Origin: Candidatus Omnitrophota bacterium
GTDB lineage: Bacteria > Omnitrophota > Gorgyraeia > Zapsychrales > Zapsychraceae
Reading direction: 5' to 3'
Assembly: GCA_021108075.1 (NCBI GenBank)
Contig: JAIORP010000120.1
Location: 21,557-85,556, forward strand
Length of the DNA stretch: 64,000 bases
Position numbers and translations under genes: made by a program. Shown here piece by piece: positions 26 to 51,801 of the stretch (the first letter of the stretch is position 1; each line of letters begins with the position of its first letter). Below the pieces are notes generated by a model, which had not been told where the DNA came from, ran no database searches, and saw only the letters and a program-made list of their open reading frames with translations.

Positions 26-450
26 ATGCTAACATCCTCCATGGTATTTGAAGGGCTTGCGCTTATTGTCCTGGGATATGTTGCCTGGCGAGTGGCCTGT
101 CTAGCGGTCAGAATGATTTGGAGTATTGGTGCGATGATCAAAGATCAATTCGGCGCCAAGGGCCAATATATCATCGAGCGTGAGGGAGGCAGGGCCCGTA
201 AGACGAATAGAGGAGCGACCGCCATATCGATCATATTATTTATAAGCGGTTTTGTTTTCTTTTTTGAATCTGCCTGGGGATGGGTTGCCCATCAATCCGA
301 TATGTTGTCGCGGGAACTTCCATCGACCGGTATTGATATCATGAGCGTGTCACCTGTTCAAGCAGCATGGCTGATGATTGCGGCTTTCGGTCTGGTTGCC
401 GCGGGTCTCTTGATATGTCTCTTTAAACGTCAACGGGCTGACCAGCGATT
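26..450 (+). other. N-terminal hydrophobic segment with about 3-4 predicted TM helices
   Basis: Hydrophobic stretches LALIVLGYVAWRVACLAV, AISIILFISGFVFFF and AAWLMIAAFGLVAAGLLICLF, followed by basic KRQR. Confidence 0.5.
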
Positions 451-3400
451 GTTGCCGCGCATCTTTTATAATAACGGAGAACCAACCGTTTTCTTCGCGT
501 CTGTCCGTGGATTGATCAGGAAATTTTTCCGCCCATCATTCAGCGATATTTTATCAGCGTATTTCAAAGATCAACCGGCCTTGAACGTGCTTGGCCTTGG
601 TGTTGGACAGGCGCATTTTGAACTCGGTCTCCGTCGACGGTTGGAACAAGCAGGTTATCACGTCAATCTGATGGGTGTTGATCACAATATGGACGCAAAA
701 GTCTTAAATCAGAAAAATCTGAAGGTCCCCGCGCAAAGAGATGAAGACGTGGTTGCTGTTCTTGGAGAACACTCACAGGATATTGTGGTTGTCAAAGCGC
801 CGGAATCCGGGCATATCCGTGAAGCCCTGGAAATGGCCTATCGATTGGTCAAAGACGGCGGATTAATTCTGACATCGATGTACGATTATCCTCGGGACCG
901 GATGTCTGTGAAGGTTTTAAGTGTGGAATCGCTTAATGGTTTTATATCATCAAAAATTGATCACTTTGCGCAGCAGAATGCAACAACACTTCAATTACAG
1001 GCGCTGGATTATCAGCCGTTGTTCACACCGAAGGGCGGGGATCCGGTATCCTATCCTATTTTTATCCAGGTGAGGAAGTCACGCGACAGGGAATATCAAA
1101 CAATGCAAATGAATCAATTTACGATGAAGCATATCACCTTCCTACTCCGTGAAGTGTTTGACCGCGGCGTCGGGGTCGTGATGTTATCTGTATGCTCACC
1201 ATTGATGCTTTTAATTGCCGTATTTATTAAATTGTTCCAGGGCGACGGGATTATGTTTATGCAAAAACGGATGGGCACAAACCGTGAGTTTGTGATGTAT
1301 AAATTCCGCACGATGACAACTGAGTTTGACCCGATTGAGAGATCGGAAACAACATTAGGGCGTATTCTTCGCCCCACACGTCTTGATGAACTGCCGCAAC
1401 TCTGGAATTTGGTTAATGGTGATATAGGTATTATTGGGCCGAGGCCGTTACCGCTCCGCCTTATCACGAAGGTTGGTCATCAAGCCTATAGAGCGAGCGG
1501 ATTAGCGCGACGCAAGAAGGGACTGATTGATGGATTAACGATGAATTTTATTTTACATGAACTCGTTAAACATTTGTCACAGAGCCGAATAACAGTCATT
1601 CAAGCATGGGCCAAACAACGGATCCAGAAATATTTTAGGAAATATTTGAATTATATCCGGGAGCAGCCAGACAAACAATTCATCTTTGAAGTGAACATGC
1701 TGTCCATTTTTGAGAAAACCCCGGTTGATTTCGAAAGCGTCAGCCAAAGCATTTTATTTAATAACCGTGAACACAATGACCGGGAGCCCATACGTAAGAA
1801 GTCGGCGATCCGTCTGTATTTACCGAAAGATTTTGAGAAACGATTTGCCCGGGTGAATACGGCAACCGCCCTTAATTTGATCCGTGATTTAGCCCGTCAA
1901 CCGCAAGGCCATGAAAGCGGAAGCTGGGTCCAACTGTCTGACCAGGAACAATTGGCCTTGATGGTGAAGGCTCTGGCTGCATCGCTGTGGCGCGATGATG
2001 TGACTGAACTTGCGCTCGCCCTGGAGGTCTTTGTCAAGTACGCGGATAACCTCCTGTATGATTTATGCGAAGACGCGACGGATTTGATTAAATCCTTCCT
2101 TAAAGTTTATCAAAAACGAGAAATTTTAAGATTTATACATTCTTCCTTCGGGGAGCAATTGCCACATGAATGGGTCGGATTTTTACGGGATGTGATTACT
2201 TATGTCTCGCTGCTGGAAAGTCAAGACGGGTATACTTATGGCCATGACACGCGTGTGGCGGAACTAAGCCTGGCTATCGCGCGAAAGATGCAAGCTAACG
2301 GACAAGCGCAATTTGATGCCGCGGCCTTACGCGATCTGTTCCTCGCTGGACTTCTGCATGACCTGGGCAAATTATTGGTACCGCTACCCGTTCTGAACAA
2401 GACAAAGCCGCGCACGCAAGCGGATGTCAGTATTTTCCACTTGCATCCGGAATGGGCCTTACAGTTGATCGATCTACCACCCGCGGCCAGCAGCGTCGGC
2501 GCCGGCGTTCTGTATCACCATATTTATCACAACCTGAAGAACGGGTACCCTCTTGACAGACTTTACGGCCAACCGTTGCCATTAAGCGCGCAAATCATCG
2601 CGGCTGCGGATACCTTCGACGCGCTCCATACAGACAGGACATACCGCAAAGGCGTTTCTGAACAGCAAGCCCTTGAGACAATGCACCCGTTGAAAGGCTC
2701 ACAATTATTGACAACAGCCGTCGAGGCTCTTGAGCAGCTGCACAAGGATAATCAGTTATCTTCTTATTATCACAATGGGCATGAACACAACCGCGCTTAC
2801 ATTTTATTGATCAAGTTGGTTAAGGATGCCAATGGTTTCAGCGCGAAGAAGGACACAAAAGATAAGGGTCAACCCGCCCGTTCAACCAGGTTCCCTCCGT
2901 ACATGCACTTAAAAGCTGAAGACCGGGAGATCATCAAAAAGATTAAACCAAAAACACAGATGATCCCCGGGGCCCGTCAAGGAGGACCCGCATTCTACTT
3001 GCCGCACTTCAATATCCCTGTTTATATTATTACACCGATTTATCCTTACCATATTAAGAAATTAGAAGAAGCCGTTGAGTGGATTGTGAAGAGCGGGTGG
3101 TTAACGTCTTATCCTGAAACCATGAAGTCCACAAATTGTATTTATATGGCCTATGATGAAACCGACCGGGCTGCGGGCGAAGCATATGATAACGGCGCGA
3201 CGTATGTTTACGTGAACGATTTTATGAAACAGTATGCCAGTTTCACCGCGGGAATCCTGATTCACGAAGATATTCATCATCAAAACAACCGGTTAACACC
3301 TTATTGGGACCGCTTAGATTTACCGGACAGTATTTTGAAGTACTATCCGAGGATCAGGCACGATTGGATGAAAGAAAGCTTCCGTATGCCGTCAGGCCTG

Positions 3401-6400
3401 TTGCATGAGTTGATTTCTTATTCGTATGAAATTCAATTTTTAAAACGCTTGTTGAGGCATAGTTTGGTTATGTCAAAGGCCGAGAGACAAAGCATTATGT
3501 CTATCATTCGGCATCGGAATGCAAAGAGCAAACACGTCTTAAAAATTTTATATTACCGCCGTCCGTTGATGAACACCGAAGGGGTGCAGATCTATTGGGA
3601 TTGTTGTTCGACCTGGCAGGACATTGATCAGTTTGTGAGCCGGAGGAGTCAACCGCGCAGTGTCGTTCCTACTCCGCGGCCAGTTTCAAGTAACCAGCAA
3701 GCTGATATGTTGAAATGGCTCGAGAGGAGAAAGCTCAAGCGTAAAGAAAAAGCTGATATCTGGGGATCATTCTATTTTGGCCTCCGGTATATTCATCGCG
3801 GCGGATCTGGCCTGATCAGACAAGCCGGGGCGATTTATCAAGCCTTTGTTACGGAATATGGATTTGCGCGCGGAACAATGCGCGCGTTCACGCATGCTAT
3901 CGCCACACCACACCATAAAGATCCGGCCTTTGCGCAATTACCGGATATCTTTAGATGGGCGATTGACGCGCATGAACAAGCCCATCACGCCGGGCTCAAT
4001 GAAAAGGCTGCTTACCTGGTTAATATCCAACCCTTGAGATCGGCACATGACCGCCATCCATTGAAAATATTCCGATTCTTAACCGTTATGAGCCTGAGAG
4101 CGAAACAGGTATTTATTTTGATGGTCATATTTGTCTATCTCTTTATCAATATTGTTTTCCCGGTTGACGCGGGGCAGGAAGCGGATAAGAACCTACCAGA
4201 TTCAGCAGGGGTTAAACTGCCGGTAAGAGTTGAAAGCCATGGGTTGTCCCATTGGTTGGATCAATTAGAACGGGTCGATCGGCATGTCACCATACCGCTT
4301 TCCGCGTTAGGACAGATGCGGGATTATCGGGCGGTTCCCCTTATCATAAAAAGATACGAGAAAGCGAAATCAACGGATGCGAAAGTCAAGATTATTTGGA
4401 CATTAAGACATTTTGATACGGAAGAGGTTGTTGCTTTCTTAACAGGGTTATATGTTCAGTATGGATTAGGATACCGGTTGCAACAGGCAGTTGAATCATC
4501 CCTGATCGAACTCAAACACATCGCGGTTCCTTATATCATAGACTTGATCGAGAAGTCAAATAAAAGATTACCCGGAGAGGTAAAGCTTCTTACGTTTGTC
4601 TCCGAACATGGTAGCGACCTGGCCGACGCATCCAAATCCGATCAGTCCGTCAGCCGTTTAAAGGCGAAGGTCAAACAAGGTCCGACATCTTCATTGTGGC
4701 AAGAAGGCCGGGTTGTTTCAGCCGCTAACAGTCTACTGGAAATGAGAACGCAAGATTATTCTAAGTTAAAGGCCCGATCAAAGATCAAAATATTGATGGA
4801 AAGAAGAGGAGCCTCTGGCCGGTATTTAACAAATTTGTGGGCGCAGACAAAGTCTTTAGACCAGCAGAAAAAGATTATTATTTTGTGGGGGGAGATCCGA
4901 TATATTTATGCTGTTCAAATTCTGAAAGATATTCAAGTCGGGGGAGCGCGGGAGTTACGCGCGTTAGCCGATAAATCGCTTCATCAGTTGGATGCTGAGA
5001 TCGAGCGCATTATCAGAAAAGAAAAAGAAAAACGCTGGATTATGTCTCAAGATAACAACCTTGTTTTCTTGGCTAAATATCATTTGGATATGCTCGTCAA
5101 ATATTTATCCGCGGATTATGAGGATTTTCATTTTGTTCTTTACAATGTCTTCGGTCAAGCTGGAAATAGCGAATCTGTGCCATGTCTCGTAGAAGGGCTT
5201 AACTCTGATGTCAGAAAAAATAGAGACGCGGCGGTTAAAAATTTGGGCCGGATCGGTGATCCCCTCGCGGTTCCGGCCCTCATTGACGTCATGAGAGATG
5301 GAAGTGTCATAACCGCATCGCTGGCATTATTAGAGGTAGACGACATTTATGGCATCATCGCGTCCTATGGTTACCGGGATAATGAATTGGTCCTGTATTT
5401 ATTGTCACCGATGCGAGAAGAGGTCCGGGTTCAATTGATCAAAGCCTTAAGAGATGAGGACAAGCGCATACAATGGGGCGCCTTAAAACTTATCCGTCAT
5501 TTCGGTGGAGTGGATCCGCAGGAATTAATTGATGTTTACACCCAATATGATTCTAAAGCGGGCCGCTTGATGGCAGAGATATTATCAGAGCAGGCAAAAG
5601 AAGAAGCGGTCAAGAAAATCCAGAGGAAGATCGAATCCACCATCGATGAAGATTTTAAACGGGTGAAAGAAGCGTATCTTCCACTGTTAAAGGATTTGGA
5701 CTCGAACGCCCATAGCCAGGCCAAATGGCATGTGTTCTGGAATTATTATTTGCCATTAGTCAGGGATAAAGCCATCATCTTGATCCTGCATTTGATACCG
5801 ATAACGATCCTGTTTATCCTTCTGAATCGATGGTTTAGAAGACAGAAAAGGGCTGATATCTGGGGATCATTCTATTTTGGCCTCCGGTATATTCACCGCG
5901 GCGGATCTGGCCTGATCAGACAAGCCGGGGCGATTTATCAAGCCTTTGTTACGGAATATGGATTTGCGCGCGGAACAATGCGCGCGTTCACGCATGCTAT
6001 CGCCACGCCAAATGACAAAGATTTGGCATTTAAGCATCTGCCGGAAACGATTAAACGGGGGATTGACGCGCATGAACAAGCTCATCGCGAAGGGCTCAAT
6101 GAAAAGGCCGCTTACCGCATCAATATCCAGTATTTCAGGGTTAAAGACCGTGTCGAGGCCATGATTGAAGACGTGATGGTTGACCGCGACCAATTGAGCC
6201 TGTTCATTCGAGAAATGTTAAGACGGTTTACGTTCGCGGAACATTTTGTTGACTTTTTGATCCGCCATAAAGAAGGTGTTCAGGTGGTTGCCCTTAAGGT
6301 GCATGACTTCAAGAATCAATTCATCGGACGCGGGGAAGAATTAGGCGTCGGACATAAACTCGGATCCATTGCCCTGTCGAACGTTATCGCTCGCCATCTT

Positions 6401-9400
6401 AGAGACGCCATCAATAAATACCTGAAAGACAATAATTTCCGCAGGATTGTTAAGGACAATGTTTTTAACGAAGGGGATACCTTCTTTGTCGTGATCGGAT
6501 ATACGCGTGCTACCCGTGAGAACCAATCGTTTGATATTGAGACGATGATACAGTATATTCTCAGGTCATCGTCTTTCCGCAGTAAAGTTGTTAAAGGTGT
6601 GAAGAAACGCTCCGGCATCGCCAGGAAATTAGACGATTTTACCGAGAAAGATTTTCATATGTATGGCGGTATTTCTAAATTATATGAAGGTTCGTTAAGC
6701 CAGGAAGATATGGGTACGGTCCTGAGCGTCGCGGACCGTCTGCAAATGCAAGCCATGCGCACAGCGAATATGATCCACCTTAAGTACACAAGTTACTATG
6801 CCGATTTCCTCGAAGAAATGAAAACCTTGCTGGCACGGACAGATTTAACGGAACAGGAAATGTTGGACCGCCGTGAATTGTTGTACCGAAGACTGAATAA
6901 GCTCATCCTGAGACAAAAAGTCAGCCGGGTCCAATTGTTTTCGACGATTATAGCAAAAGAAATTAAGAGAGCGCAAGGCGCAGGATTGACGAAGAAGATT
7001 AATCATTTTGACACAGTTACAGAACTTTATCCAGATGATAAGGTCTCCACTATTGACATCAAGGTTGCATTATGGGAAGCCATTCAAGCAAAAGACATTC
7101 ATGAAACAAGGACCCAGTTGAGGAAATTGATCAACCGCCGCATCATCTACCGCAGTAACCGTATTCCAGGAAGAGACAATATCTTCACCGGGTACACCAA
7201 TATCCGCCGTTTCATTAACTATCTTATTCGACGGCGTCCGAGTGAAAGTTTTGACATGGTTTATCGTCTTGGACGACAATCTGATGAATACGCTGTTCTG
7301 CTTTGGGATGCACTTAACCAAAAATTAGCTGTGTTCCGGTTTGACGCGATGAATGTCTCGACCATTGCCAATTATTATAGCCGGGCGGCGGCCAGTGAAA
7401 TGTTGGACGAAATGAGTTTAGCGATCAAACATGTTGTCAAAGAATCAGCCAAAGACCATAGAACTTTAGCAGCGCGATTAATTTATATCCGCAAGAATTT
7501 ACACCGTCACATCGGTGAACGATTTAAAGATAAACCTTATTATGCCACACCGGCTGTTTATGATGTTTTCTTTGAAGAAATGACGATCTGGCGAAAGCAA
7601 AAAATTTATCTATTGGTCAAAGGGACAAATACGTCCTATTCCATGAAATTTAAGAATGGATGTCCGGAAATACGCCATTCAAACGGTTCGCTGGTAAGGT
7701 GGAATAACCTTCCGTTCACATACAAACACATAAACGGTGATCAGGCAAAGATCAAATTATTAGAAATAAATAAATACGCGTTGTTGAGGATAAAACCAGA
7801 GGTTTATCAACGGCTCCAAAAAACAGGGCGCGTCTATAATGATGATGAAATGATAAACGGAACAGTTGTGATTCCGACCATTCCAATTCTGCCAGGGGGA
7901 TATTTGATTGTTGATGTCGCCGCTATCAGACAGGATGACCTGATGAAAGATTTTGGTGACTTGCAATGGTATGCCGATAGCATGGCCGAATGGATAAAGA
8001 ATCATGTGATTAGACCACACCAGATTATGGGCCGGATCATAAGGCCGCGGATGACAATATCGGAATGGCGCAATGATATTAAAAGTGATATTGCTCAATT
8101 AAAAGAGTATCATCCCACACCGTATAAAGTTTTAGTCGCGGAGATGATGTTGCAGCGCGTTCTGAAAGAAAAAGAACAAAGCGAAGAGAGGAAAAAAGAA
8201 GAGCGGGAGGACACATTAAGAGACGAGATAGATTCGGATACAGGTTATCAAACATCTGCGTTCGGTTCGTTTGTCTTTGGCAGCGTCATGACCGTGCCGG
8301 TTCTCTTCGGCGTGAAGCTCGCCGTAGTGCTGTCTCTATCAAGTCCGGCGCTTGGTGTTCTGACCGGACTTGTCAGTCTCGTCGCGGCTTTTGTCGCGGC
8401 GCATTATTTCAGAGAGTTTATTGAAATTGCTTTAGCCACGTTGCTCGTCAAGTTCGGACGCATACGCGGCCCGGATGCGGTCAGACAGAATTTGGCCGAA
8501 GAGTGGCGTACGGCTGTTGAACATGGCCGTGCGGTTGTGACTCCGACACTTAAACAACCGGCTCAGAAACGAAAGACAGAAAATGTCATCCGCGTAAACC
8601 CTCAAATTTTATCGCGCTTATCGGTGAGTGTTCAACAGGCGATTTACCGTCATGAGATGCTGCACCTTAATGGTCAGGGAGAAATAAGCGCCTATTTGCA
8701 ACAAAATTTAATCATAGACAATGTTTGGAAGGGCATCCGTTTAGTTGTTTCAAACAAGAAATACCCCGTGATCCAGCAACTCTTTAAGAATGTGACAGAG
8801 GCGGACTCAGGGGCAGTTGATGATCGGCATCACGGTAAAGGCCGGATTCCAGCATTGGCCCATGTCTTAGTCGCGTGGCTTTATTGGTTGACGCGAAGAG
8901 TTCATAAATCGAACTTACCTGTCGCCTACGAAAAAGCATTACGGGTGGCCAAGGCCATCCAGCCATTGATCGAACAGGTTCTTTTCTGGAAGATTTCATT
9001 GCTGCTCATGGGGCTTATCAATATTCCGATCGGGATCCTGATCACGTGGGGTCTTTTCTATGGTCTGCACTTTTTCGAAACAAAGGATTGGAAAAAGCCT
9101 TCTTCTTTCCAGATATTGTGGGTTTCTGTTGTGAATGTCCTTGCCCAGGATATCCTGGTCTTGATGCCTCTTGACCAGGTTGCGTTGTTTAATATTTTCA
9201 GTTTGAGTGCCCATCCATACGCTTATGCTGCGTTTGCGGCGGTACTTATTTATCACTATATTTACGAATACGGTTTTATCTATGTGTTCCGCCGTATATG
9301 GGGCCACCGGGTGAAAGTTCGATTACGTAAAGAATATGCGGAAAAGGGCCGATACGTCGGTGAATTTGAAGTTAAATACCGGTTTGGCCGGCCAAATTTA

Positions 9401-12400
9401 TTCGCTGATATTCTTTATCCCGCGAAAGCCTATAATGCCCACGTCTATGTTCCACAAAGAATAGTTAAGGAAGGATATAAAATTTATCGAGGGCGTATCA
9501 CGACCCATTCAAAACAAAAGCTGCATGACACGATTGACCGTATGCGGCGCGTCTCTGATATCTACATACCAAGATTCAAAGGGGTCCAATGGACGATTGC
9601 GGTTGATATCGATGATAAGGTCGGAAGTTTGTATGAACTCACACACCTATTAGGCCGTCACAATATTTTAATATCAGGTTTTCTCCCGCCGCAAATAAAT
9701 GAGCAACAGAAAAACGTCTGCCTGTTCCTCGAACTCGATGTGCCTAAACGAATCGGCAGTTATACGTCTTTGACAAAACTCATGCAAGAGAAATATCCTG
9801 AATTCGGAAAGGATGAAGACAGGCCGCCTATTCAGGGATCATTGTTTGAGAAGAAATTGAGTGAATTGATGGAAAACATCGGCATACGTCTATCCCTCCG
9901 GGAAGTGGACCTCTGGTTAAAGGCCTTATCGGTTAATAACCGTTATCTCTGTCGAGCCCGTAAAAATGAGCACGATGCTTACGTGGATCATTTTTTGAGG
10001 GTCGTTGAAATTTTAGTTTTGAAATTTGGCGTTAAGGACAAACAGGTCCTCCTGGCGGCCTTGTTGCATGACAGCGTTGAAGATGACGTCCTTACCCCAG
10101 AGGAACTGCGTCAATTATTTGGTGATGAGATCCATGATATCGTTATGCTGCTGTCTAAACGTCAACCTAAAATGGTTTATATTGATGAGAAGATGTACTT
10201 GTTAAATATGGTCAACGCGCTTGAATCGAACCGCAGCATTGCGTCAAAGGCGATCCTTATCAAATTAGCCGACCGCGTGCATAACATGCGAACATTAGAC
10301 ACCAAAGATGAAAATTTTCACCGCCGGTATTATTTCTCAACGATGGATACCTTTGTGAATGAGTTTGTCTTCGAGGTTATTAAGGCTTATGAACAGCAGC
10401 GTTTATCGGTACCAGAAAGCTATCCGATAAGCCGGGGTGTAAACTTGCTGGCCAAGCAAGTGTTGAAAACAGGTCGTCTGCTGTCCATCGTGACCTCTTC
10501 TAAAAAGATTCGTGTGGATGAGCTGTTTACTTATTTATCTAAGTTAGAAGAACCGATTGTCAAGGAGATGCTCAGGAAATTTAAAGTAGGAGAAAAAGTC
10601 GTGTCTGATATGGATTCAGAGGCGCTGGCCGTCTACCTGTATATGCTGTATCGACGGACAGTGTCAGGGAAATATAGTGATAATTATGAAGAAATTGTTA
10701 GCGTGGTCGCGATGTATACGGAAATTTACAAAGAGTTGGAACGCATGTCCGCGTTGAAATACCGACCATTGCGTTTGTTTGGGTATGATGAGGGTTCAGC
10801 GGGATCAGATCGAACGGGAACATCCGCATTGGCCTTCCCGAGACCAAATTGTTTTCTGGTGGAATTGTCCCGTCTAGGTATTGATGTGCTGAACTTAAAC
10901 GATAATATACCGGATAACAAGAAAGCTGTCTTTGACGATCAGATCATTATTTCTGCCCCGGAACTCATCTCTGTTATGGAATGTCTGCTTACGAGCGGCG
11001 AGCAATTTGATATTGATCATAATATCTATGTCTGTTCTCAGCTAACATACACGGTAAAAAATGACAGGATTCGAGAAGTCTGGCACGCGATATCCCATCG
11101 AGAATATCGTCAATTAGGACCTTTAGAGAAGAACAGCTATTTGCCATTTAAAGACTTTTTGAAATTAAACGTAGCTGATGTCTGGTTAGGCGCGCGCCGA
11201 AAAATGATTGAAGAAGACGAAGAGCTCCCAGGGCGTAAAGGTGTCAGCATGACGTTTATTACGAAATCTTTAAAAGAATTAGCGGACTATTGGCAAAAAC
11301 TAAAAGACATTTATCCTGGCGTGTCCATTTTTGGTTCATCACGGGTTCCTTCACCGGTCGCTAAAGAACTCGCTAAAAGACTTTCAGATCTGCTGTATGC
11401 CATCATTTCCGGCGGCGGTCCCGCGGCAATGTCCTCGGCTAATGAAGGTGGCCGTTTGGGTCGTCGAGGGGTTTCAGTTGGCCTGGCCTTACAATTACCG
11501 TTTGAAGAAGAAATCAATAAATATATTAATGAACCTTTCTATTTTGAATATTTCTTTACTCGACTCCTGGCATTCTTAACATTGAGTGTGGCCTTTATCC
11601 ATGTGAAAGGTGGTATTGGAACCCTTGATGAATTCTTTACCGTCGCAGCGATGAAAGATCTTGGTATTATTTCTGAAGAAACACCGATTATCCTCGTGGA
11701 CAAAAAATTGTATGGTCCGTTAGATAAATTGTTGAAGCAATGGGATGAACTGGGGTATACGCGCCTGAAATCAGATCAAATTTACTCCCTGTACGGTAAT
11801 AAAGACGTGGATGCCATTATCCATGAAGTCATTTTCGCTTTTGAAAGGTTAACACAGGACGATATCCTTAGGTTGAAGAAAAAACAAGTCCGCCGCGACT
11901 TGCTCAGGATAAACCGTCATCTCAGGAGACTCGGACCCACCGTCGGTATTGTGGGCGCGCATCGCGGTGTCGGTCCGCAAAATTATAATTACGAGATGGC
12001 TGAACAGATCAGCACAGCTTTAGCAGAATTGGATTTATCCATCCTGCGCGTCTCTGAGACCGGTATCGGAGACGCGGTCCAGCAAGGTTTTCTGCGGGCC
12101 AAAAAAGAAGCCCGTCAGGAAGGAAAGATGTTTACCGCGCGGGATTGTTTGATCGGAACAAAAGATGATATAAACGGCAATGGTCATCCGATTGATAAGG
12201 TCTTGCGCCTGTCGCATGATTCGTTAAAGAAAGTGATTTTTAGTTATGGTTACAGTGATATCCTGCTGGCCTTCCCTGGCGGTTATTCAACGATGGAAAT
12301 TATTACGGAGATCGCCACCCTTATTAATACGGGAAAGATGAATCCGGCGCGTCCGATTATTCTTTTTAACAGCAAATACTGGGCGCCATGGATGGATTTC

Positions 12401-15400
12401 CTCAGGCACATGGTTGACTCGGGGTTAGTGTCTTCTGCCATATTAGATATCTTTTATGTCGTCGATACACCTCAACAAGTGTTGGATATTGTGGTTACTC
12501 ATTTTGATACTCTCGGGTGGTATGATGACCTCAACCATCTACTGAAATTTGAGGTTGATAGATCAACAGCTCTGTCCTGGCCGTACCTTTATGACGTGAG
12601 TGGAATTCTCATCAAGATGCGGTCTGTGTCCAAACAAAAAGGCTTTAAAGACATGTTGGGATATATGGAAAATTTGGTCATCAGAGACGCCGTCACACAA
12701 ACGCAAGGGAATTTGATCCAGGCCGCCCGTCTGCTGAATATGCATGATCGTTATGTCGAACGCCGTATGGAAGCGCTACGGTCAAAAGCGAAGAATAAAT
12801 TTAATACCAGATATAAATTTTCCATACGTGAGATCCGCCATTTAAATCTACTTTATGCCATGTTAGGTGTCAGGGATATCTATGCTTTGTCCCGCCGGGC
12901 AAGAAGAGAAAGCAAGACGCATTGGCAGTTCGTGCGTGACCGGACCTTTGAGAGGGTCTTACGTGCTGGCCAACTGAGTTATTCCGAGATCAACCTGTTG
13001 TATGATCGAATCCCGGGTTGGACAGAATACATGAAAAAGAAGTTAGACCTGGATGACAGAAAACATCAAAGAAAACGCAATCACAAAGGGAAGAAATCAG
13101 GTGGCACTCTGGCAGGGCGATCACGCCAGGAGGGCAACTGTTTTGAGAAAGCGCTGAAAAAGTTATCTGTAGATGTCTTGGCTTTAAAGAGGTTCTTGAG
13201 TCAAACGGATAAGGATATTTTTGATGGGTATCACATCATTTATGTCATCCCAGTACTTAAGGCCCTTCAACGCGCTTATTCCCAAGAAAATTTGGATAAA
13301 ATTTATCAGGATGTCCTGGTCTCACATCAGGCGTCTTACGGCGTTAAGGCCGACGGTCAAAGACGTGATATTTGGCATGCCATTACACGACGGGAATGGA
13401 TTCAATTATCCATCGCGGAAAAGCAAGAATATATGACCTTTGGTGAATTTACGCGCATGGCCCCATTGGCGCAGGCCTGGTTAGGCGCGGAAGTGAATCA
13501 GCATATTGTTCAAAGGGCTGAGGCGCTCGCTTTGAAACGCGATATTTATGAAGGTTGGGCACAATATGAATTCTCGCCGGAGGAAAGTCTCGTCTTGAAA
13601 AAGGCCTGGTTACGTCTAATGGATCAATCCAAACGTTACGCGCGCTGGCAACCGCTCACAAAAGGCATCATCGCGCGGTTAAAAGCGGAAAAAGCATTAG
13701 GTCAAAATATTGAGATCATAACGCCGTCGCAGGAAGAGCTCTGGACGATGATCATGCAAGTTGCCATGGAAGAAAACATACATTTCCCGTCACCTGACAA
13801 CTTGCGCATTATCACATTGGCCGGCAATAAAGCCCTGCTGGGCGTTGAAGAAGAGGCCTCTCATTATCTTCTGGTCCCTATCGATGAAATTGAAGGATTA
13901 GATCAGTTGCGCCAGCATGACCGGTATGTTTACACTCAGTGGCTTGATCACGAAGTTGCTCGTTTGATTGCCTTGCACAAAGACCGGCAACGTTCAGAAA
14001 AAGACATCACACAAGATTACCCTGTTCATTTATTCATTGATCGAATGAAGATGCTTCGGGATAAAAAAGGTGATATACGTGTTTTCGTCAATCGCCGCAT
14101 AGAACAGTTGGCTTTATTGCAAAAATTCTTTAATGGACAGGTATTAACACAAAGTGACGTTGAAGATGGTTTTAATCATATGGAGATTTACGCGCATGCC
14201 GGGTTGTTAACGCCAACGGGTATTATTAAATTACCCAACTCTCAGAAAGGTCTTAAGATTGTCGCCAAAGGCGAGCATATCGGTGAGTCCGTTTCCTTGC
14301 GCCTCTTTAATGATCCTAATCAGGGCATCATGTGTCAATGTTTGGTTTTTGTTCATGGTGCTGACGGATATGTTTATGAGAGCGCCAATCATTATTTGAG
14401 GGATAAGGTCACGCGTGAGTCCCAGCATTTGAGGACAAGCCCCAGTCGGCTTGACGGCATTGTTACCCTTAATGAGTTAGATCTGTATGCTTACTTCAGG
14501 GGTGAAAAAATATATCCCGTTAAAGACAGCGAGGAAGTTATCACGCGCAGACGAATTGTTCAAGAAGGTGAAACATTTGAACTGCCCAACAAAATTCAAC
14601 CGGCAGGCCGGATTAGGTTGATGTATTTGAAACGACAATATTTGATTAATTTATGCGGGCCAAATGAACAGACGAATAAAACTCCAGTCTTCAAATTCAC
14701 GGGCAATGATAATTTAGGGACCGTCTTGGTCAGTGGCGCTAAAGGATCGCAACCCGGTAATTATTATTATCAAGACGAAGAGGGTGAGTTGCGGCATCTA
14801 CGCGTGAAATCCAGCAGGTACAACCGTCTTATGAGTTTAGCAGAATGGCACGCCATCAGTTTCTTGCTGGGCCGCGCGGACATCAAGGCGATACCAGGGG
14901 AAAATGTTTTTACAACGTTTAGCAAAGTCAAGCCGGATGGATATATCTCCTTGCCGTATTTTGGAAAATTAATGGTTGCTGAAGGCAATTCGGAATATGC
15001 GGCGCGCGACGTGTTCGCCCAGATCGCCCTTGTCAATGATCGTTATTACGGAACAATGCTCAGATGCTGCGTTGAGGGTGTGATCAGCAATTATTATTAC
15101 AAGGACTCGATGACAGGTCATCTGAGACATTTCCGTGTTGAGACATTAGGGCGTTATATCAAATTACGAACAGATCAATTGTGTGAGTTTGATATTTATC
15201 AGTATTTGAGGGGAAAGTCCTTTCATCACATTCCTGTCCGCCCGGATGAAAGCGACAACCGGATGACATCGATTATTTCACGGCAAGTTGTTAAGAATGG
15301 ATATTTCAAGTTTTTTGATATTCAGCCGGTTTATGTGGGAACTGTCTACAATGATCAGCATTTTAAACTATCATTCCAGCGGAATGAAAAGGGCCAAGTC

Positions 15401-18400
15401 GTTGTGGGCTATGGATTGCCGCATACCGATTTTCTGGGTTATATCGATCAAGAACTGAACCATCATCCGTATTTAATTTGTCCGTTATCAGAACACCGCA
15501 AAGCCCTGCTTCATTTGATAAAGAATCTTCCGTTGGAAGAAAGGACGTTCCTCATTAGAGAAGTGGAGAAATATCGTATTTATGATGAGAAAGATCAGAA
15601 CTTCTACCCTATTCTTGATATCGCGTTGACCAATGGCTACGCGCATTATTACGACCTTGATATGATGGGCGGACATGATCTTGATATTGCTCCAACAGAC
15701 GTGTTCTCGAGAATAGAAGGCACGTATCAAATGACAAATGGAAGTGTGGCCAGGAAGTTCCTGAAATATATAGAACGGGGTGAAAATAAAACATTAAGAG
15801 AACGATTTTATGCGCGTTTAAAACGCGTCTTAATGACGAGCTTATTAGATGTGATTTTAAAGAATTTATCCAACGGTTCAGTCGTTGATAAAATGGCCTT
15901 ATTGCGGATCTACCATCAGCTCATCGACGAATGGATGCGGCGCAACGATGTTCGTGGTCAAAAACTAGAAGTTGCGATCCTGAAAATGCAGCATCCATAT
16001 TTCTCTGTGACCGAGATAGCGCAGGTCTTTAATTTTTCAGAAGAGGAGATTGAAAAGAAAATAAAATTAGCAAACCGGCAAATTTGGTACACATCCCGCA
16101 AGCTGGGCCGTTGGGATCAACTGCTTCCTCTATTGCTTCAAGACGGTTCATTGGTCATGACAGCTATCAGCGGTCAGGTCTTAGAACTGAGCAGAAGTTT
16201 ATCCATTTTTGTCAAAGAGCTTTCTATCCAAGGCCTGCATCAATTGCCGCCGGAACAACGTGAAAGGATTATCGCCGATAAACTGCTGAATAATAAAAAT
16301 TATGAGGATCTTGATGGAGATATTTATTCAGCAGATGATTACCGTGAATTCTTTGAAGGTAAAATTGAAGCCAAACAACGCGGGGCACTGATGGTTTTCT
16401 TCGAATGGTTCAAAAGTATTCTGACAGAAGGTTTCATGCAGAAATTAGACTCAGGGTTTAACCGTTTATCCGGGTCAGCCCAGGAGTATTACCGTGAACA
16501 TGGGGAACGCTTAAAGAGTATAGAACAGCGTTATGGATTAACACTCCCTGTCGCGCGGGAGCACTTAAGCGATATTATCCGTCGATATGAACAAAGACGC
16601 AATGCGTCTGATGTCGTTGAAGACGATGTCTTCAGACGCGACAGTGCGGCCGCGGTTAAGACTAAGGGTCCGAATATCGGTTATTACGGAAACATGCAGG
16701 GTGTTGATCAATGTCAAATCAATAGGATCGCCGATAATCCCAGATTCGTAAAAACAGTCGAGCAGCATTTAAATCTTATCCCATTTTACCGGGAGGGTGA
16801 CGTTCCTGTTCAGGTCAAGGTGTTCAAGAAGCAGCCGGACAACACACCGCCGGAAGGATTTATCTGGGCCCGGTTTGAAATGGTCGAAGACCGAAAGACC
16901 CTGGTTATTTGTTTTTCGTCTGAAAACCTCCTGAAAATATTCCTTCGAGAGTTTAGTCTTTTTGAACGTACTCCGGCATACAGTGTTATTGCTCTGCATG
17001 AGTTGATCGAATTCCAGGACGGTCATACAATTGCGGATCGGACGGCACGAAAAAGTTATCCGCGATACGATAAACGCATTAAGTCACTGTTTAAGAAAGA
17101 ACCGTTCATCACCAGCGCTAACAAAGGTCATCGTTCGATGGCAGGGAAGCAGTTGCTAGAGCTTGATATCCACGCGCGGATCCATGAAGATTTCTTGGCC
17201 GCAGACCGGGATCAAAATCAAGGAGGGGCTGAAAGAAAAGTTTCTTGGTATTATGAAAAAGGGCCCCATTATCTAAAAGGATCAAGATTACCGCCACAGA
17301 AAGATTTAATTCGGTTAGGCGTACTGCTTGAGAAAGAATTGAGCGATGTTAAAGACCTTTTACAGCGGGTACAGGAATCTGTCACCGTGTTCGGTGGAAA
17401 TATTTCTGATGAAGAGTGGCAGAAGTTTGGGTATTTATTTGGCCAGAAGTTATTTGAAGTCCAGCTTGTTCCTCTGACAGGGGGCGGACCTGGAATGATG
17501 ATGATTATTTTGAAGGGGTATATCGACGCGCGTGGAACAAATCTCTATTGGTTCTTGAAACGGTTATTATCCCGTGCCGTTCTTGCGTTCCTTCCGCATA
17601 TGCCGAAGTTCCTAATGAAATGGATAAGCTCAGGTTTGACGCAAGGGTTTAAACTCTATATAAAAGGTCAGGACCTCAACCGGTATGTTGAAGTGTACCG
17701 TTATTTCACTCATTTTATCCCGCGTAAGGCGTCTTTGATCCGCAATTCGATTGTTGTTGTTTTATATGGTGGTTTTGGTACCACGGATGAGATGTTTGAG
17801 GTCTTACGAACCGGACGAAAGTTTATTTTAGCAGATTTCTGGCGTCCGATTATCAACCGCTACCGCCATGTCTTGGCACAAAAGAATTGGGTGGAAGAGC
17901 GCTTGGAAAACATCAGATATATTCCGGATATAGAAAAAGATATCGACGGGGCTATTCAGACAGCTATTAATTGGGTGAAAGAAGATATCAAGAATCCTGT
18001 TGAAAAGAAAGAAGAACTCAAGTCAACGGTCGCCGCTTTAGACGGCACGATTCATGAGCTTAAGAGTGTCATGCCCATCCTGCAGCAATGGGATCCCGCC
18101 TTGGTCGTCATGGGCAGCAGCCGGTTAGACCCCTACCGGCGCAAAGATCAACGCGACTTGTCTATTGCCAGATACACCGGGCGAATGGCGGCACGGCATG
18201 ATCTGCCGATACGTGTTGTCGGTAAAGGTTCGATCGCCAATGCGGTTATTCAGGGTATCGATGATGAAATTAAAGACAGGGATAAACGCGAACAATATAA
18301 ACAACGACGGTTGCAGGGCATATTTTCCTCAGAAGAAGTAAATATCATTCATATCCAGCAACATTTTAATAGCCGCCATGTCATCTCGACCCAAGATCCT

Positions 18401-21400
18401 TATATCCAGAAATTGGTATTGACTGAAAATGTGATGGGCTTTGTTGTTTTACCCGGGCGATTGGGAACACTTGATATCATCAGTGATGATGCCGTTGTTC
18501 AGCAGGTTTATTATTTGGAAAATAAAGAAATGATGTTTAAGCCGATCGTCTTTGTCAACCGCTCATTCTGGAAAACGTTCTGGAGTTTTTGGTTAACACG
18601 GGTGCAGCCGTATATTATGCCGGGAGCGGAAAAGATTTTCTATTATGTTGATACAAAGCGGGAAATCTATCAGGTATTAGAAGAGATCGTTGAAGCCTAT
18701 CGAGGTGCCCGGCGTATTAAGGGTTGGGATTATGACGCCCCGTCTCAGGAAGAAAAGAAGAGCATGACTTCGGATGACCATATTTTGATTTGGCCCGTTA
18801 ACGATTGGCGGGGAGATGAACAAAAATCAACGCTGTCCCACGACCTCCGCGTCAAAGCCGGACAACAGGCGGCGGCAGGCAAGAGACCGGCTGTCAGCCT
18901 TGATAACTCGATGGCAAATTTTAATGCCTTAGAAAAATACCGTTATATTAATTTTTATCATTTTTATTCTGAAATTATTATTCAAATGGGCCAGGGACTT
19001 CTGCGGCTGGGTGTGGACCGTCAACTTATTCATAAAATCTTCTTAGACCGGGCTCCGCATCAATTTGGGCAAGATGTTGGACAAGCGGCTAAATCGGTTA
19101 ATAGTGTCCTGATGGAAACGGCAGAGTATATTTTACACGCCCAGGAGTTGTTATCCGATATCAACATTAAAGATAAATGTGCGCAGGAAAGAATTGTTAG
19201 CGATTTGGTGATTAAGTCCATTGTTCAGCAGGGTGGTCAATTTAAGTTTGATATTGAATGGTTTAAGACACAGATGCATTTGGCCGTATCAGCTGGCATG
19301 TTTAGACAATTGATTGTTCAGGAGATTTTCTTCCAACGACAAAATAAAACGATCCAGGTGATACCAGAGGAAGCCTGGAATAAGATCGCCTTCGCGGTCC
19401 AGAAATTGTTAGAAGAACACAGAGAGGTAAACGGAATTGATACCATTGAGAATATGTGGGCATTATTTGTTTTAGATCTTGAACTTCAGAGGGAAATACG
19501 CATGGATAATAAGATCAGACTCCTTTTAAAGAATATTTTCAGACGTTATTCAAGGCCGTCGAAAGACATGGGCATGGGCGCACATGGCAATATTTATGAA
19601 AACGATGTTCCATTGCTCGAACAGCTCATCCGTGAAGAGAAATATCATGCGATCATGGAATTTGACGGTGTCGTTGAAGTGAAAGGCGTGCGGATTAAAT
19701 GGCGGGAATTAAAAGAATATATCAACGGTGAAAAGAAAGAGTTCATCTACGCCCGTTGGGCTGATCCAACAAAACAGACACTGGAAATTTACTTCTCATC
19801 ACATTCAGCTGTTAAGATTTTTGATAAGTTTATCGCGCATTCATTTGTCCCAGGATACATGCACGGACATTCATTAGAACAGCGGTTACAATTATTGGCT
19901 TTACATGAGATTTTGGAAAAGCGCTTTATCGCGGATGGGTATGCGCCGTGGGTAGCCCATATTCTGGCGGAGGAACGCATTGTCCAGCAACGCGATATCC
20001 GCGTTCATCATAATTATCAAGAGCATGTCTCTGAACGCGGGCATCATTTAGCGTCGGCACTACTTTTAAACGATAAATGTCAAGGACAAGATTTGGTCGG
20101 CCATGAAAACCGACGGAAGCAATTTATTCAAGCTGTTCATGGTGGTCCCTATACAATTTTTCCGTATTATGATGATCAGGAGCAGATGGTCCTGTTTACA
20201 TTTTTCTCCGGGGGGATTTTGTTGCCGGGAAAAATTAAGTCTCAGTCGAAAGAAAAAGACTTTGAGCCATTCCGGACCATAAAAGGCGATAAGGGTACAG
20301 GGTTTGGCATGATTATCAGTAAAAGGATTATTGAAAAACATGGCGGCGCTATTTCTGTTCAAAGCAAATTTGGTGAGGGCACAACAATGTTTGTGAAATT
20401 GCCGATAAGGGCAACTGAGCCTAGGCTGGAAGTTGTAACTGTTAATAATCCTGACGGTGCATTTACCGGGATGAGTACAAAAAATTCGGATGCGAAATTG
20501 GCGGAGCACAAGGAGGATGAAGGGATTAAGATGAAGGTTACGGAGTTTAAAGAGAATGAAACAGCGAGGACATGGGTGAGCGAGAAAAGAAAAGAAGCTT
20601 CAGCCACAGCGCCGCTTTTGCCGGATAATATTGAGACGGTTGTCGTAGAGAACCGGGAAGTGAGTTACGGGTTAAAATATGTTGAAAGAGATGACGACGG
20701 TAAAGCGAGGGTGTATGTAGAACGCCCGTGGCTGGATCGGGTGGATAAATTGCGGAAGATGTATGGAGACAAGTTGGCTGAGCCTATCCTTATTTGCGCT
20801 TTTGTCCATGAATTTACAGGGAAGAGCCATGAGAATAATGTAAGGGCAGAGGGTGTTTATCTGGAGGAATATTTTGCGGACAAAGATTTTAGCAATTTTA
20901 TACCGGCTATTATTAATAGTTTAGAAAATTTGCGAGAACAAGAGATCCTGGAGCCGATAAGTAAAAAGCCTAATATTGTTCAGGACAGTACGGTTTCAGG
21001 CCTGGAGAGTAAGGTTCCGGCGGATTCTGGAGATGTTTCAGGCTCGCCGGAGAGAACGTATAAGTTGCGCGGCAAAGATGGGCTGCTTGCATGGACAGGA
21101 ATAATAACGCAGAGCATAAAACAGAAAGCTGGACAAAAGGATTCATCGGATGGATTTTATAGGGGATTTACAACAGAGCAGGTAGAGGTATTATCCACAC
21201 AGGGGTGTTATTTTGTTGTCTTAAAAAATAGCCCCGCGCATAAGCGGTTAAAGGATTTGTTCAGGAACAGGTATAGTGAGGAGGAGAGAGGGAGAAATGA
21301 GGTGATTATTACAGTGCCGGGGGCTCTTGTGGTTTTCTCGTTACATATCGGGATGCCGAGGGAAGATTTACAGCGAATGTTTCAGGAGAAATGCCGAATA

Positions 21401-24400
21401 GAACGGACGCTTTCAGGGCATGTAGATTTATTAGCAGAATTTTTTAGCACGCCGGAGAGGCGGCGTATTTATAAAGAATTCCTGGGAGAAAGTCATTATG
21501 AAGACCCTGACAATCCGGGGACAGGTATAAAAGAAGAAATTGCTTTAAGAAAATTAATAACAGGGATTATTACAGAAATAAAATTTTCTGAAGCGGTTGT
21601 TTCAGGGAAGGATACTCTTAACGGAAACGCGAGAAGGATTCCGCAGAGTTTTATCAAAGATCTGATGCAATTTTTAATAGAAAATTTTTCAGGAAAAGAT
21701 ATTGTTTCAGAGTCGACAGCGGATCAAATTAAAGGAATATATGAACGTCATGAAATTATCAGTGAGAACGGGACAAAGAAGAGATATCGCGTATTAAGAA
21801 AAAATGTTCCGCAGGTTAGAACAATGTGGGGTGTTGTTGTGTCAGATAAAGATATTTCCCCCTGGGAAACTGTTGATATTGAAGTGAATTTTGAGATTGG
21901 GAGGGATTTAAACAAGGAAGAAATAGAGCGTCTTTTAAGAAGCAGGACAATAGATGTGAGGGTAAAGGTGAAGAGTTACCGGGATGCAAACGGAGATAGA
22001 CACAATACAGAAAAAGAGGAATCTTCAACGCTGAATTACGCGGTAAGGTATGAGGATATCGAAGTAATAGAGATGTTTTATGACGAAGGGGCGACTATGT
22101 GGCGTGGCGCAGTTGAGGAATACAATAATCAACGCGCGCGGAAGGTTCGTTTTAGAATGAAGGTGCGTTTCGCCCCTGTTCCGGGTACGTACACTGTGGA
22201 GGTGTATGTAATACAAAAACAGGGAATAGTCATTGTGGATGATATAGAGGAATACAGGAAAGGGATTGTTAACATAGCGGAGCCCGGGATGTTCACAGAA
22301 GAATTTTTTAGAAAGAGGTTTCCATCGAATTATAGAAAATACATCGGGACACCTGAAAAACAAAAATGGGAGTATAAAAAAGAATTAGTGAAAGAAGTAA
22401 TCCTCTCGTTGTTTGGCAGATATATTAAAGAATGTACAGAAGCAAGGAATAGATACAGAAGATGCAACGCGCTCGCGAAATTAATATATCTGCAAAAGAA
22501 ATATAATACGGCAACAGAGTTATTAGATGGCATTGTTACCCATGAGGATCAGAGGGTGAGGCTTGCAATCGCGGAGGATATGGAATGGTTGCCTGCTAAT
22601 GACGCGTTGGTATATCTTAAGAGGCTCATCAAAGACAAAGATAAGAACGTGAGGGAAGTTGCCCTTGATATAGAGGAGGACATTAGTGATGAAAGGAGTA
22701 ATTTTTATTTCTGGCACTGGATGAGAAATTATTTCATGCCGATGGGCGGGTTTTTAAACAGGACAATAAAGAAAATCAGTAAACAATGTATAGTTGAGGT
22801 TAATGAATTTATAAAACGGAGATTAAAGGATAGCAACCTTGATTTGGAGATGGATACTAAGGAGATATTTACAGAAAGATCAGTAAAGGAATCCTCAGAA
22901 GTTATTCTTAATAAGATAAAGCTTATTTTAGCCGAAGCACAGAGGGGGATTACAGATAAAGATGAGATTGAGCACATGGAGAATATCTGTTTTAAACTGG
23001 AAGGATTTATAAAAGTTTTGGATTCTTTCAATAAAGTGGAAGACCTGATAAGAATAGGAAAAAGGAGGGACGAGAGTATAGAACAGGCATTAACAGAAAA
23101 GGCAGAGTTAATTAAACAGGAGTTTTCTTGTATGGAAAGATTCATGAAGATGTTGCGGCAGGAAGGCGCGATTGTAGCAACATATTTGGAAATTATTAAA
23201 GAAAAACATATTATTATAACAGGAATGATCGATTCGATATTAAACCTTGGCAAAAAACAGGCAGTGCGTACAGAGACGATAAAAGATATTGTTATTAGTT
23301 TACAGTATGTGGAGAATTTAATGAAATTGGAAAGGTTAAAGAAGGCTAAGAAATTAGAGGCGTCGGGAGAATCAGAAAAGGCAGAAAAGTTAAAGAAAAC
23401 CAGCCTTAAGATAACATTTAGCTTTGGTAAAGGCGTGAACCTTAATACGGCAGTAAAGGTAGAAAAGACATTTGTAAGGCTTCTTGGTGAAATGGTTAAG
23501 AATTCAGAAGAGCATGGAGGAGAAAAGGTAACTATTACTTTTGTCCCTAACAAAGACAAGGTTACGATTCTTTATATAGACGATGGAGAAGGACTGGATG
23601 TTAATACAGGAGCAGAGAATATCTTCCTGCCATTATTTAGCGCAAAGGCCAAGATTATTTTAGACAAAGAAAAATGTGATCCAAAAAAGGAAAAATTAAA
23701 TGCAGATATTGTAAACAAAGTATACCTTTTGAGAAAGGGTGTTGAAATCATTGGCGGGCAGGTGGATATTGTCGAGCCAAATGGAAAAGGTTTTCAGTTA
23801 AGGATTACCGGTTTGCCGATTGAGTATGATCCGGAAAGATTTTATGACATCGGCGATATGTATGAATACCTGAAGAAAGAATTTGAAACGGCATTATCGC
23901 GGTTAGAGGATGTTGATGAAGATTTACTGGATACAGGGGATGTTCAGCATCTTGGAATGTTATTAATTCATTCCCTTGAAGAATATCGTGATGCTGTTAT
24001 TAAGGGAAGAATGAGATTTATTTTATCAAGCGCGGAAGAAGTAAAAAAGCAGTTAAACATATTGTCCGAAGAATTAGTAACTCTCCAGCATTCGGATAGT
24101 TACCTGGATGACCCTGATGTCAGGGGTCAAATAGATCCGGTTTTAATAACATTTGATAGGATTTTACGTCAGATAAAGTTAACGTCATTATCGTTAAGCC
24201 ATTCAATGAAAGATGTCTCAATAGGAGAATTTATGCAGAATATGATCAACCGGTTTAACGATGAAGTACAGGATGTAAATGTTAATCTTGAAATAGATGA
24301 GAGGATATTGAATGAGACGATTTTTACATTTTATGACCATCTTGAGGCAGGACTGACGAAACTGCTCTGGTATGCTGCTGCCTTTGAGAAGCCCGAAGGC

Positions 24401-51776: not shown

Positions 51777-51801
51777 CGTTTAATTATGGGAGGGACTTAT
51801 T

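Follow-up and report, generated by a model that had tools for sequence, protein, structure and literature searches.

Most surface glycans of bacteria are initiated by monotopic phosphoglycosyl transferases (monoPGTs), which are also drug targets, and the minimal functional PGT core and the contribution of its C-terminal third are live questions in the field. Here we analysed a monoPGT catalytic-core module encoded in a 64,000-nucleotide (nt) stretch of DNA (positions 21,557 to 85,556 of contig JAIORP010000120.1, assembly GCA_021108075.1; the whole stretch is called the window below) from a metagenome-assembled Candidatus Omnitrophota genome, where it lies inside a giant open reading frame (ORF). 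The closest described systems are the small monoPGTs, such as PglC of Campylobacter (PDB 8g1n, 8e37 and 5W7L; PF02397), the large monoPGTs of the WbaP type (a four-helix bundle, a PF13727 domain and the PGT), and the bifunctional monoPGTs, in which the core is joined to a glycosyltransferase, an acetyltransferase or a similar enzyme (PMC11626204; PMC10942596). On the side of the host protein, the giant proteins of Omnitrophota ('Archaeovorin'/multi-enzyme) have been described as mosaics that combine numerous enzyme domains, which are often incomplete or strongly diverged (10.1101/2023.11.21.568195; 10.64898/2026.06.07.730766), and SecA without scaffold and wing is an example of an incomplete domain given in these giant-protein papers. 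The module analysed here has the same helix break, hairpin, LDELPQLWN dyad and GPRP as the small monoPGTs. In contrast to them, it is without the last approximately 80 residues, its loop is shortened, and it is internal to a protein of 15,549 amino acids (aa) rather than free-standing.

When the translated ORF was compared with the known families, the PGT module was recovered by profile and pairwise methods. The Pfam Bac_transf profile (PF02397) matched with E=5e-28 and 98.3 bits against a gathering score of 27, phmmer aligned the module to PglC of Campylobacter concisus (8g1n) with E=5.8e-16, and hhalign against a profile of 92 small PGTs gave a probability of 99.9%, E=2.5e-31 and 44% identity. 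The NCBIfam full-length models were not reached (TIGR03025, 120 bits against a cut-off of 295 bits), and TIGR03025 and TIGR03022 aligned to catalytic-core positions only. By sequence similarity, which is far beyond chance, aa 368-484 is a genuine relative of the PglC/WbaP-type monotopic PGTs, and its homology places the module in the monoPGT superfamily, as judged at the Pfam-domain level. The first-pass annotation of this DNA had proposed a complete PglC-like monotopic PGT at window nt 1100-1460, which is aa 359-479 of the giant ORF, and the PglC-like identity was borne out. The motifs that it had named were all located and contiguous at aa 391-474: SPLMLL at aa 391-396 (nt 1196-1213), KFRTM, the Asp-Glu (DE) dyad within DELPQL at aa 454-459 (nt 1385-1402), and GPRP, which contains the PRP nucleotide-binding motif named in PMC10186338. 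The predicted re-entrant membrane helix was assigned with the motif definitions of PMC6133551 (a break formed by Ser or a branched residue followed by Pro, and an N-terminal Lys-Arg). The retained parts of the fold are this helix, the beta-hairpin (FxQxRxG, YKFRTM), the dyad helix and the GPRP strand. The equivalent of PglC Arg88 (R449) and K426 are kept. The equivalent of Lys7 is R375, in a column that is 99% Lys in the family, and that of Arg8 is E376. Ahead of the dyad helix, the mobile loop has 6 residues fewer than in the family, and Ser440 stands where the family has a 100%-conserved Arg.

The word 'complete' did not hold. The homology stops at aa 481-486, that is 7-12 residues past GPRP, in all methods. 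Coverage was limited to positions 2-116 of 179 in the Pfam profile, 10-122 of 205 in the PglC chain (8g1n), 236-378 of 445 in TIGR03025, and residues 9-132 of the 209-residue hhalign reference, where the alignment ended at ORF aa 484. When the module was compared by tblastn with the 80 best metagenomic PGT genes, most matches ended at query residue 112-124 (aa 474-486). A family profile of the C-terminal third gave no match in the six frames of the 64-kb window (hmmsearch --max); the best score was E=0.18, at an unrelated place, and a frameshift hiding the C-terminal third was ruled out on this ground. When aa 476-620 was scored directly against the same profile, it obtained -1.0 bits compared to -0.2 +/- 1.1 bits for shuffled versions (1000 shuffles, of which 806 got a score; 652 of these 806 scored at least as high as the real segment). 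When only family columns with at least 90% conservation were counted, 37 of 46 were kept up to GPRPL and 7 of 31 beyond it; had the second block retained residues at the rate of the first (80%), the probability of 7/31 would be 1e-11. Because conservation is strong up to GPRPL and then drops to zero signal, deletion or replacement is favored over gradual decay. A complete catalytic core of approximately 180 residues with its C-terminal third (PGITG motif, Arg145, Asp169, C-terminal helices) was not found, so the module should not be filed as a PGT enzyme or as a bifunctional or large PGT. The last approximately 80 residues of the PGT fold are, as read from the sequence, absent, and in their place stands an unrelated orphan sequence. 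The annotation had named loss of the DE dyad or of the helix-break Pro as what would speak against its proposal; the dyad and the Pro are both kept, and that test ignored the part which is actually missing.

An AlphaFold2 (AF2) model of aa 351-600, built with a 100-sequence alignment, had a mean predicted local distance difference test score (pLDDT) of 66.7. The score was 88-97 over the membrane helix (aa 351-400), 67-81 over the core and 50-65 after GPRP, and fell below 50 further on. Foldseek found PglC with this model (E=1.5e-6; TM-scores of 0.35 and 0.43), and the tighter of its alignments covered 103 columns at 37% identity. The predicted structure confirms kinship to PglC and is insufficient to define the fold after GPRP.

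As an artefact, an ordinary stand-alone PGT gene could have been cut and joined to unrelated sequence by a frameshift, a mis-assembly or a chimeric contig. The sequence does come from a metagenome assembly, and internal repeats of 98-99% identity in the giant ORF could confuse an assembler. Nevertheless, this explanation is hardly credible. The absence of the C-terminal third from all six frames excludes a simple frameshift, all 15,549 codons lie in one unbroken frame, the repeats are more than 2 kb from the PGT module, and base composition is uniform across the junction. Moreover, the same contig (ENA ERZ26872899 NODE_24) is recorded for two samples, at 100,871 and 100,940 bp, which argues against a one-off assembly artefact.

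The part that is missing has been studied in PglC. Arg145 aids the binding of undecaprenol phosphate, and its replacement (R145A/Q) lowers activity 100-200 fold (PMC10519829); the Asp169-Lys7 salt bridge is required for activity (PMC6133551); and both stability and turnover depend on the aromatic box, which consists of Tyr118, Tyr122, Trp150, Phe154 and Phe197 (PMC10186338). Beyond the truncation point fall Arg145, Asp169 and, from the aromatic box, the three residues Trp150, Phe154 and Phe197; the positions of Tyr118 and Tyr122 lie at its edge and are not conserved in the module. The C-terminal portion of the fold around residues 174-182, including Lys179, is also missing. Since Arg145, Asp169 and this C-terminal portion are missing and the invariant Arg of the mobile loop is Ser440, classical transfer of sugar phosphate to polyprenol phosphate is unlikely, and classical PGT activity is doubtful.

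The orphan segment does carry features of its own. Residues 476-727 had no homologue at E<=1e-3 in a set of 5.8 billion proteins and no Pfam family. After GPRP, a basic cluster (R496-K498) and two basic amphipathic helices (aa 477-494 and aa 529-546) were predicted; for the helix at aa 529-546, the hydrophobic moment is 0.67 and the net charge +5, above the 99th percentile of the giant protein. These helices are suggestive of elements that would rest on the membrane surface. On the other side of the module, the charges of the loops between the three N-terminal hydrophobic helices (Lys+Arg/Asp+Glu of 8/3 in residues 29-62, 1/3 in residues 82-114 and 5/2 in residues 134-160) predict, by the positive-inside rule, an N-terminus outside and a cytoplasmic chain from aa 134 onward. 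The cytoplasmic side is where PGT catalytic domains work.

The explanation that we favor, to which we give about an even chance of being right, is a truncated PGT-derived module which docks on the cytoplasmic leaflet, maybe binds a ligand, and is probably incapable of classical polyprenol-phosphate transfer. After the three N-terminal transmembrane helices, the chain would run in the cytoplasm; the Ser-Pro helix would then dip into the cytoplasmic leaflet and re-emerge, so that this portion of the giant protein would be docked on the inner side of the membrane. Because a re-entrant helix at aa 383-401 would keep the sidedness of the chain, the next approximately 960 residues, including the HD-GYP domain, would stay cytoplasmic, and such a placement would fit the nucleotide-signalling nature of HD-GYP and the other domains that follow. 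Binding of Mg2+ and of a uridine nucleotide or uridine diphosphate (UDP)-sugar may have persisted in the conserved Asp-Glu/PRP pocket.

Several observations weigh against this explanation. The retained part keeps the DE dyad, PRP, YKFRTM and QxRxG, and at approximately 44% identity to the family it retains 37 of 46 conserved positions, an outcome with a chance of approximately 2e-5 if drift had proceeded at the average (neutral) rate. A mere anchor could do without a catalytic dyad, and this argues for a role in which the active-site residues are used. In addition, R496, K497 and K498 together with the basic amphipathic helices could replace Arg145 and the interface helix, and DSSP reads the helix of the AF2 model as continuous over model residues 2-55. 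There is also a bolder proposal: the approximately 120-residue N-terminal two-thirds of the monoPGT fold would suffice by itself for catalysis or ligand binding, and in the giant protein a basic amphipathic subdomain of non-homologous origin would complete it. We consider this proposal unlikely. If it were true, the module could prime a lipid-linked glycan in cis at the anchor point of the giant protein, or alternatively could sense UDP-sugar/uridine monophosphate (UMP) or polyprenol phosphate and signal to HD-GYP and the other nucleotide-signalling domains; either case would show what a minimal monoPGT core is and give that core a new role.

The chief rival explanation is a still-active PGT. 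In it, the orphan segment would fold as a C-terminal subdomain, either non-homologous or diverged beyond recognition, and would restore the polyprenol-phosphate site, so that the giant protein primes a lipid-linked glycan at its membrane anchor. The main argument for such an enzyme is that most family-invariant residues of the retained part are kept, including D454-E455, R449, K426 and PRP, with conservation far above the neutral expectation. The helix at aa 529-546, with its hydrophobic moment and positive charge, would also suit it, the spacing from GPRP to GLT/GLIDG is approximately that from GPRP to PGITG in the family (MAFFT alignment), and other giant proteins of Omnitrophota commonly carry sugar-metabolism and glycosyltransferase domains. 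In contrast, the C-terminal third is without statistical signal and AF2 confidence is low there even with the family alignment. Arg145, Asp169 and the aromatic box, all important by mutagenesis, have no identifiable counterpart, and the mobile loop shortened by 6 residues, Ser440 in place of the invariant Arg, and Arg375/Glu376 in place of Lys7/Arg8 also speak against activity. Moreover, no glycosyltransferase domain was detected in the giant protein with Pfam, and no glycosyltransferase, flippase or polymerase gene, the marks of a PGT-initiated glycan pathway, was found in the 17 kb downstream. An active enzyme of this kind is possible, if rather doubtful.

At the other extreme, the module could be an evolutionary relic, a PGT fragment captured as the mosaic gene grew, which would now be at most a hydrophobic spacer with motifs that only record its history. 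The sharp truncation resembles a deletion or recombination scar, and incomplete profile matches were also obtained for several other domains in this protein (HATPase_c, positions 52-109 of 111; AAA_11, 2-102 of 257; Sigma70_r3, 6-47 of 78). Recent internal duplications in the giant ORF indicate ongoing rearrangement, and 80% of the sequence clusters of proteins of at least 10,000 aa are singletons (10.64898/2026.06.07.730766). However, the retention of 37 of 46 conserved positions at approximately 44% identity to the nearest relatives speaks against a relic, and the ORF is open across 46.6 kb, so the region is translated. The composition of the module is also fully adapted to that of the host ORF, against a very recent capture: its GC content is 0.454 (58th percentile of windows across the ORF) and its GC content at third codon positions 0.500 (78th percentile). 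Because base composition is typical of the host ORF, the module is not an obviously recent import, and recent foreign acquisition was not supported. On balance, a relic is improbable; if it were one, the module would be ordinary, another partial domain in a known class of mosaic proteins.

The architecture of the module was compared with those of the described multidomain PGTs. The bifunctional monoPGTs likewise have a PGT core covalently joined to other enzyme domains (for example P0272, with a GT4-like part, and P0218), and their core is complete with one partner at one end. In contrast, the module in the giant protein is truncated, flanked on both sides, and has signalling and nucleotide-metabolism partners. 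The order of elements at the N-terminus of the giant protein (membrane helices, a Rossmann-like region and the PGT core) is superficially that of the large, WbaP-type monoPGTs. When aa 1-375 was tested as a WbaP-type N-terminus, hhalign against 39 large or N-terminally extended PGTs gave a probability of 3.8%, and this candidate was rejected; no match to PF13727 was obtained in this N-terminus at E<=10, and neither Pfam nor NCBIfam supported a WbaP type.

A similar truncation was found in tandem-PGT proteins. In P0128, P0130, P0136, P0212 and P0242, the PGT module is likewise cut shortly after GPRP and other sequence follows. There, however, a second, complete PGT copy comes next, and the truncated copy is often without the dyad (AE in P0128), whereas in the giant protein the dyad is intact and no complete PGT copy is present in the window. 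Public proteins with a PGT copy cut just after GPRP include P0128, P0130, P0139, P0229 and P0154, and the recurrence of the break at this place suggests a subdomain boundary. Proteins with two PGTs in tandem were recorded as P0125-P0137, P0145, P0152, P0177, P0182, P0212 and P0242; in several of them the first copy is degenerate (dyad AE, DG or EQ) or cut after GPRP and the second is intact. From their sequences, these proteins look like a family made of a PGT pseudo-domain and a PGT, of which no description was found in the papers cited here.

Relatives with the same flanks were looked for in proteins and in contigs. When aa 351-583 was searched against the 5.8 billion proteins, the matches were stand-alone PGTs of approximately 200 aa only, many of them cyanobacterial, with 37-52% identity over 36-60% of the query (about 85-140 residues); the remaining matches of the protein searches as a whole were tandem-PGT proteins and large or bifunctional PGTs. 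A search with aa 134-727 against 1.84 billion representatives (HMMER) gave no match below 1e-30, and the top matches were tandem-PGT proteins. No relative with the same flanks was found in the protein searches, where the giant protein itself gave no self-match in the 5.8-billion-protein set; giant relatives may thus be invisible to such searches, since the giant protein is itself absent from the database. The 233-aa query did not retrieve its own giant protein even though neighbour genes of the same contig are present in the collection, and very long proteins thus seem to be lacking from it. Pattern scans of genome contigs, which require exact 8-residue words, also gave no same-flank relative, and the scan of metagenome contigs was dominated by the DELPQLWN pattern, with 80 of 80 loci being ordinary PGT genes. 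The 80 best metagenomic relatives are ORFs of at most 832 aa in which the match lies 49-107 aa from the stop, and none is embedded in a giant protein. The proposal that the PGT is embedded in a giant protein stands, with sequence on both sides of the module unlike in any of these 80.

The host protein itself resembles the Omnitrophota giants in its length above 10,000 aa, many membrane helices, shared set of Pfam domains, internal repeats, partial domains and unique sequence; its 15.5 kaa fall short of the 30 kaa that West-Roberts et al. set as their threshold. In contrast to that class, no glycosyltransferase, glycoside hydrolase, peptidase or SecA-like domain was detected in it. The MutS, ABC ATPase and MSEP-CTERM proteins encoded downstream are identical to NCBI proteins from a Candidatus Omnitrophota metagenome-assembled genome. 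The Pfam domains of the giant protein are HD-GYP, HEAT_2 repeats, a RelA/SpoT-type HD_4, three tandem SLOG/LOG pairs, two HATPase_c, Sigma70_r3, NUDIX and an AAA_11/AAA_12 helicase, and a hydropathy scan found approximately 15 strongly hydrophobic regions that are candidate membrane helices. West-Roberts et al. 2023 list HEAT_2, HATPase_c, NUDIX, Lysine_decarbox and methyltransferases in their proteins (10.1101/2023.11.21.568195), and a 2026 preprint groups methyltransferase, HATPase_c and HD regulators in a 'signal-transduction/regulatory' module and counts 552 Pfam families across proteins of at least 10,000 aa (10.64898/2026.06.07.730766). The host protein thus falls within the known class of giant multi-enzyme proteins of Omnitrophota. 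Bac_transf/PF02397 is mentioned neither in the text of these two papers nor in one supplementary file.

Since this class is already known as a mosaic of partial domains, the claim of the first-pass annotation that the architecture is novel was weakened. The novelty is modest and consists in a monoPGT core that is embedded internally and truncated at its C-terminus and has kept its dyad, a curiosity and not a new system. The module is a natural construct in which the front part is under apparent constraint and the back part was discarded, and it would be a useful test case for the minimal-core questions only if it binds ligand or is active. Omnitrophota giant proteins gain one more kind of captured domain, and we offer the idea that a cytoplasmic stretch can be held at the membrane by a re-entrant helix while its sidedness is unchanged.

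The features of the module and of its surroundings are collected in Table 1. Two of the flanking domains had been named by the annotation. The HD-GYP domain that was said to follow the PGT is real, and it is not adjacent, as approximately 245 residues separate its start from the PGT core. The methyltransferase-like domain that was said to precede it obtained sub-threshold matches only in aa 174-292 (Methyltransf_23, E=0.03; Methyltransf_32, E=0.17; PRK06202, E=0.016); this region had no sequence match in PDB, and its single-sequence AF2 model had a pLDDT of 34.5 and was unusable.

Table 1. Coordinates of the giant ORF, the PGT module and neighbouring regions (nt positions in the window; aa positions in the giant ORF).
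Feature	Position (nt)	Strand	Basis or remark
Giant ORF hosting the PGT module	26..46675	+	Single uninterrupted frame, 15,549 aa
Three N-terminal hydrophobic helices, aa 10-28, 63-81 and 115-133	53..424	+	Hydropathy scan
Weakly methyltransferase-like (Rossmann-type) region, aa 174-292	545..901	+	Sub-threshold matches
Truncated monotopic PGT catalytic-core module, aa 368-484	1127..1477	+	Pfam, phmmer, TIGR03025, hhalign
Predicted re-entrant membrane helix, aa 375-405, with S391-P392 break	1148..1240	+	PglC 8g1n alignment; hydropathy peak at aa 383-401
YKFRTM motif, aa 425-430	1298..1315	+	Columns 92-100% conserved in the family, all kept
D454-E455 (equivalent of the PglC Asp93-Glu94 dyad), in RLDELPQLWN	1385..1390	+	Family columns 100% conserved
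GPRP, aa 471-474, PRP nucleotide-binding motif	1436..1447	+	P472-R473-P474 in 100%-conserved columns
Orphan segment, aa 485-727, from PGT core to HD-GYP	1478..2206	+	No C-terminal-third signal; AF2 pLDDT 36-65
HD-GYP domain, aa 728-891, HDLGK at 778, GYP at 840	2207..2698	+	HD_5 E=1.5e-21, HD E=1e-12

The start codon of the giant ORF is provisional because its frame is open upstream to window nt 2, with no stop between that position and the ATG at nt 26. The source contig extends approximately 21 kb upstream of the window; the true start may lie upstream of the window, and the protein may be longer than 15,549 aa. The position near the N-terminus that the annotation gave to the PGT is thus plausible.

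Further along the giant protein, the SLOG/LOG-type pairs (Lysine_decarbox + LDcluster4) are encoded at approximately 11200-12560, 17400-18700 and 33000-34300 of the window, and pairs one and three are 42-55% identical to each other. Together with HD_4, HD-GYP, NUDIX and HATPase_c, these pairs give the giant protein a marked nucleotide-signalling flavour. Several internal repeats were also found in the ORF. Near-identical direct DNA repeats lie at window 25629-26685 and 28518-28968 and encode a recurring 'VPEGLEGAEEGAYSGDTFDTRLSGEEIRNGSFY...' module. Two 300-nt reference stretches within 25629-26079 are repeated 606 nt downstream with 98-99% identity, and a third copy of the 25629-26079 repeat lies 2.3 kb further on with 62-91% identity. 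These repeats point to recent internal duplication or gene conversion. Another internal duplication, of window 3747-4029 and 5847-6129, has 89% DNA identity and 53 identical residues in each copy (ADIWGSFYFGLRYIHRGG...HAIATP); a pattern scan of GTDB species genomes gave no relatives of this module. At its C-terminal end (window 44300-46675), the giant protein has a threefold repeat with 40-58% protein identity, in which two copies are strongly hydrophobic and the motif 'ARYQRPDYRSLWNH(V/I)F' is conserved and common to the copies.

The 17 kb downstream of the giant ORF encode a SipW-like signal peptidase, a GntR/PmtR-like regulator with an ABC (ATP-binding cassette) transporter, an exosortase-K-like protein with an MSEP-CTERM protein, MutL, MutS and CheC. 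The signal peptidase gene, a homologue of the SipW/archaeal-type signal peptidase I (TIGR02228, E=5e-12, below its cut-off), lies at 46856-47332 on the minus strand, convergent with the giant gene and 180 nt beyond its stop. The exosortase-K-like gene (TIGR04287, E=3e-6; exosortase/archaeosortase signature, 23.8 bits against a cut-off of 23 bits) is directly upstream of the gene for the MSEP-CTERM sorting-domain protein (TIGR04286, E=4e-125), 4.5 kb past the giant gene (window 51159-54816), and the two genes form a protein-sorting pair.

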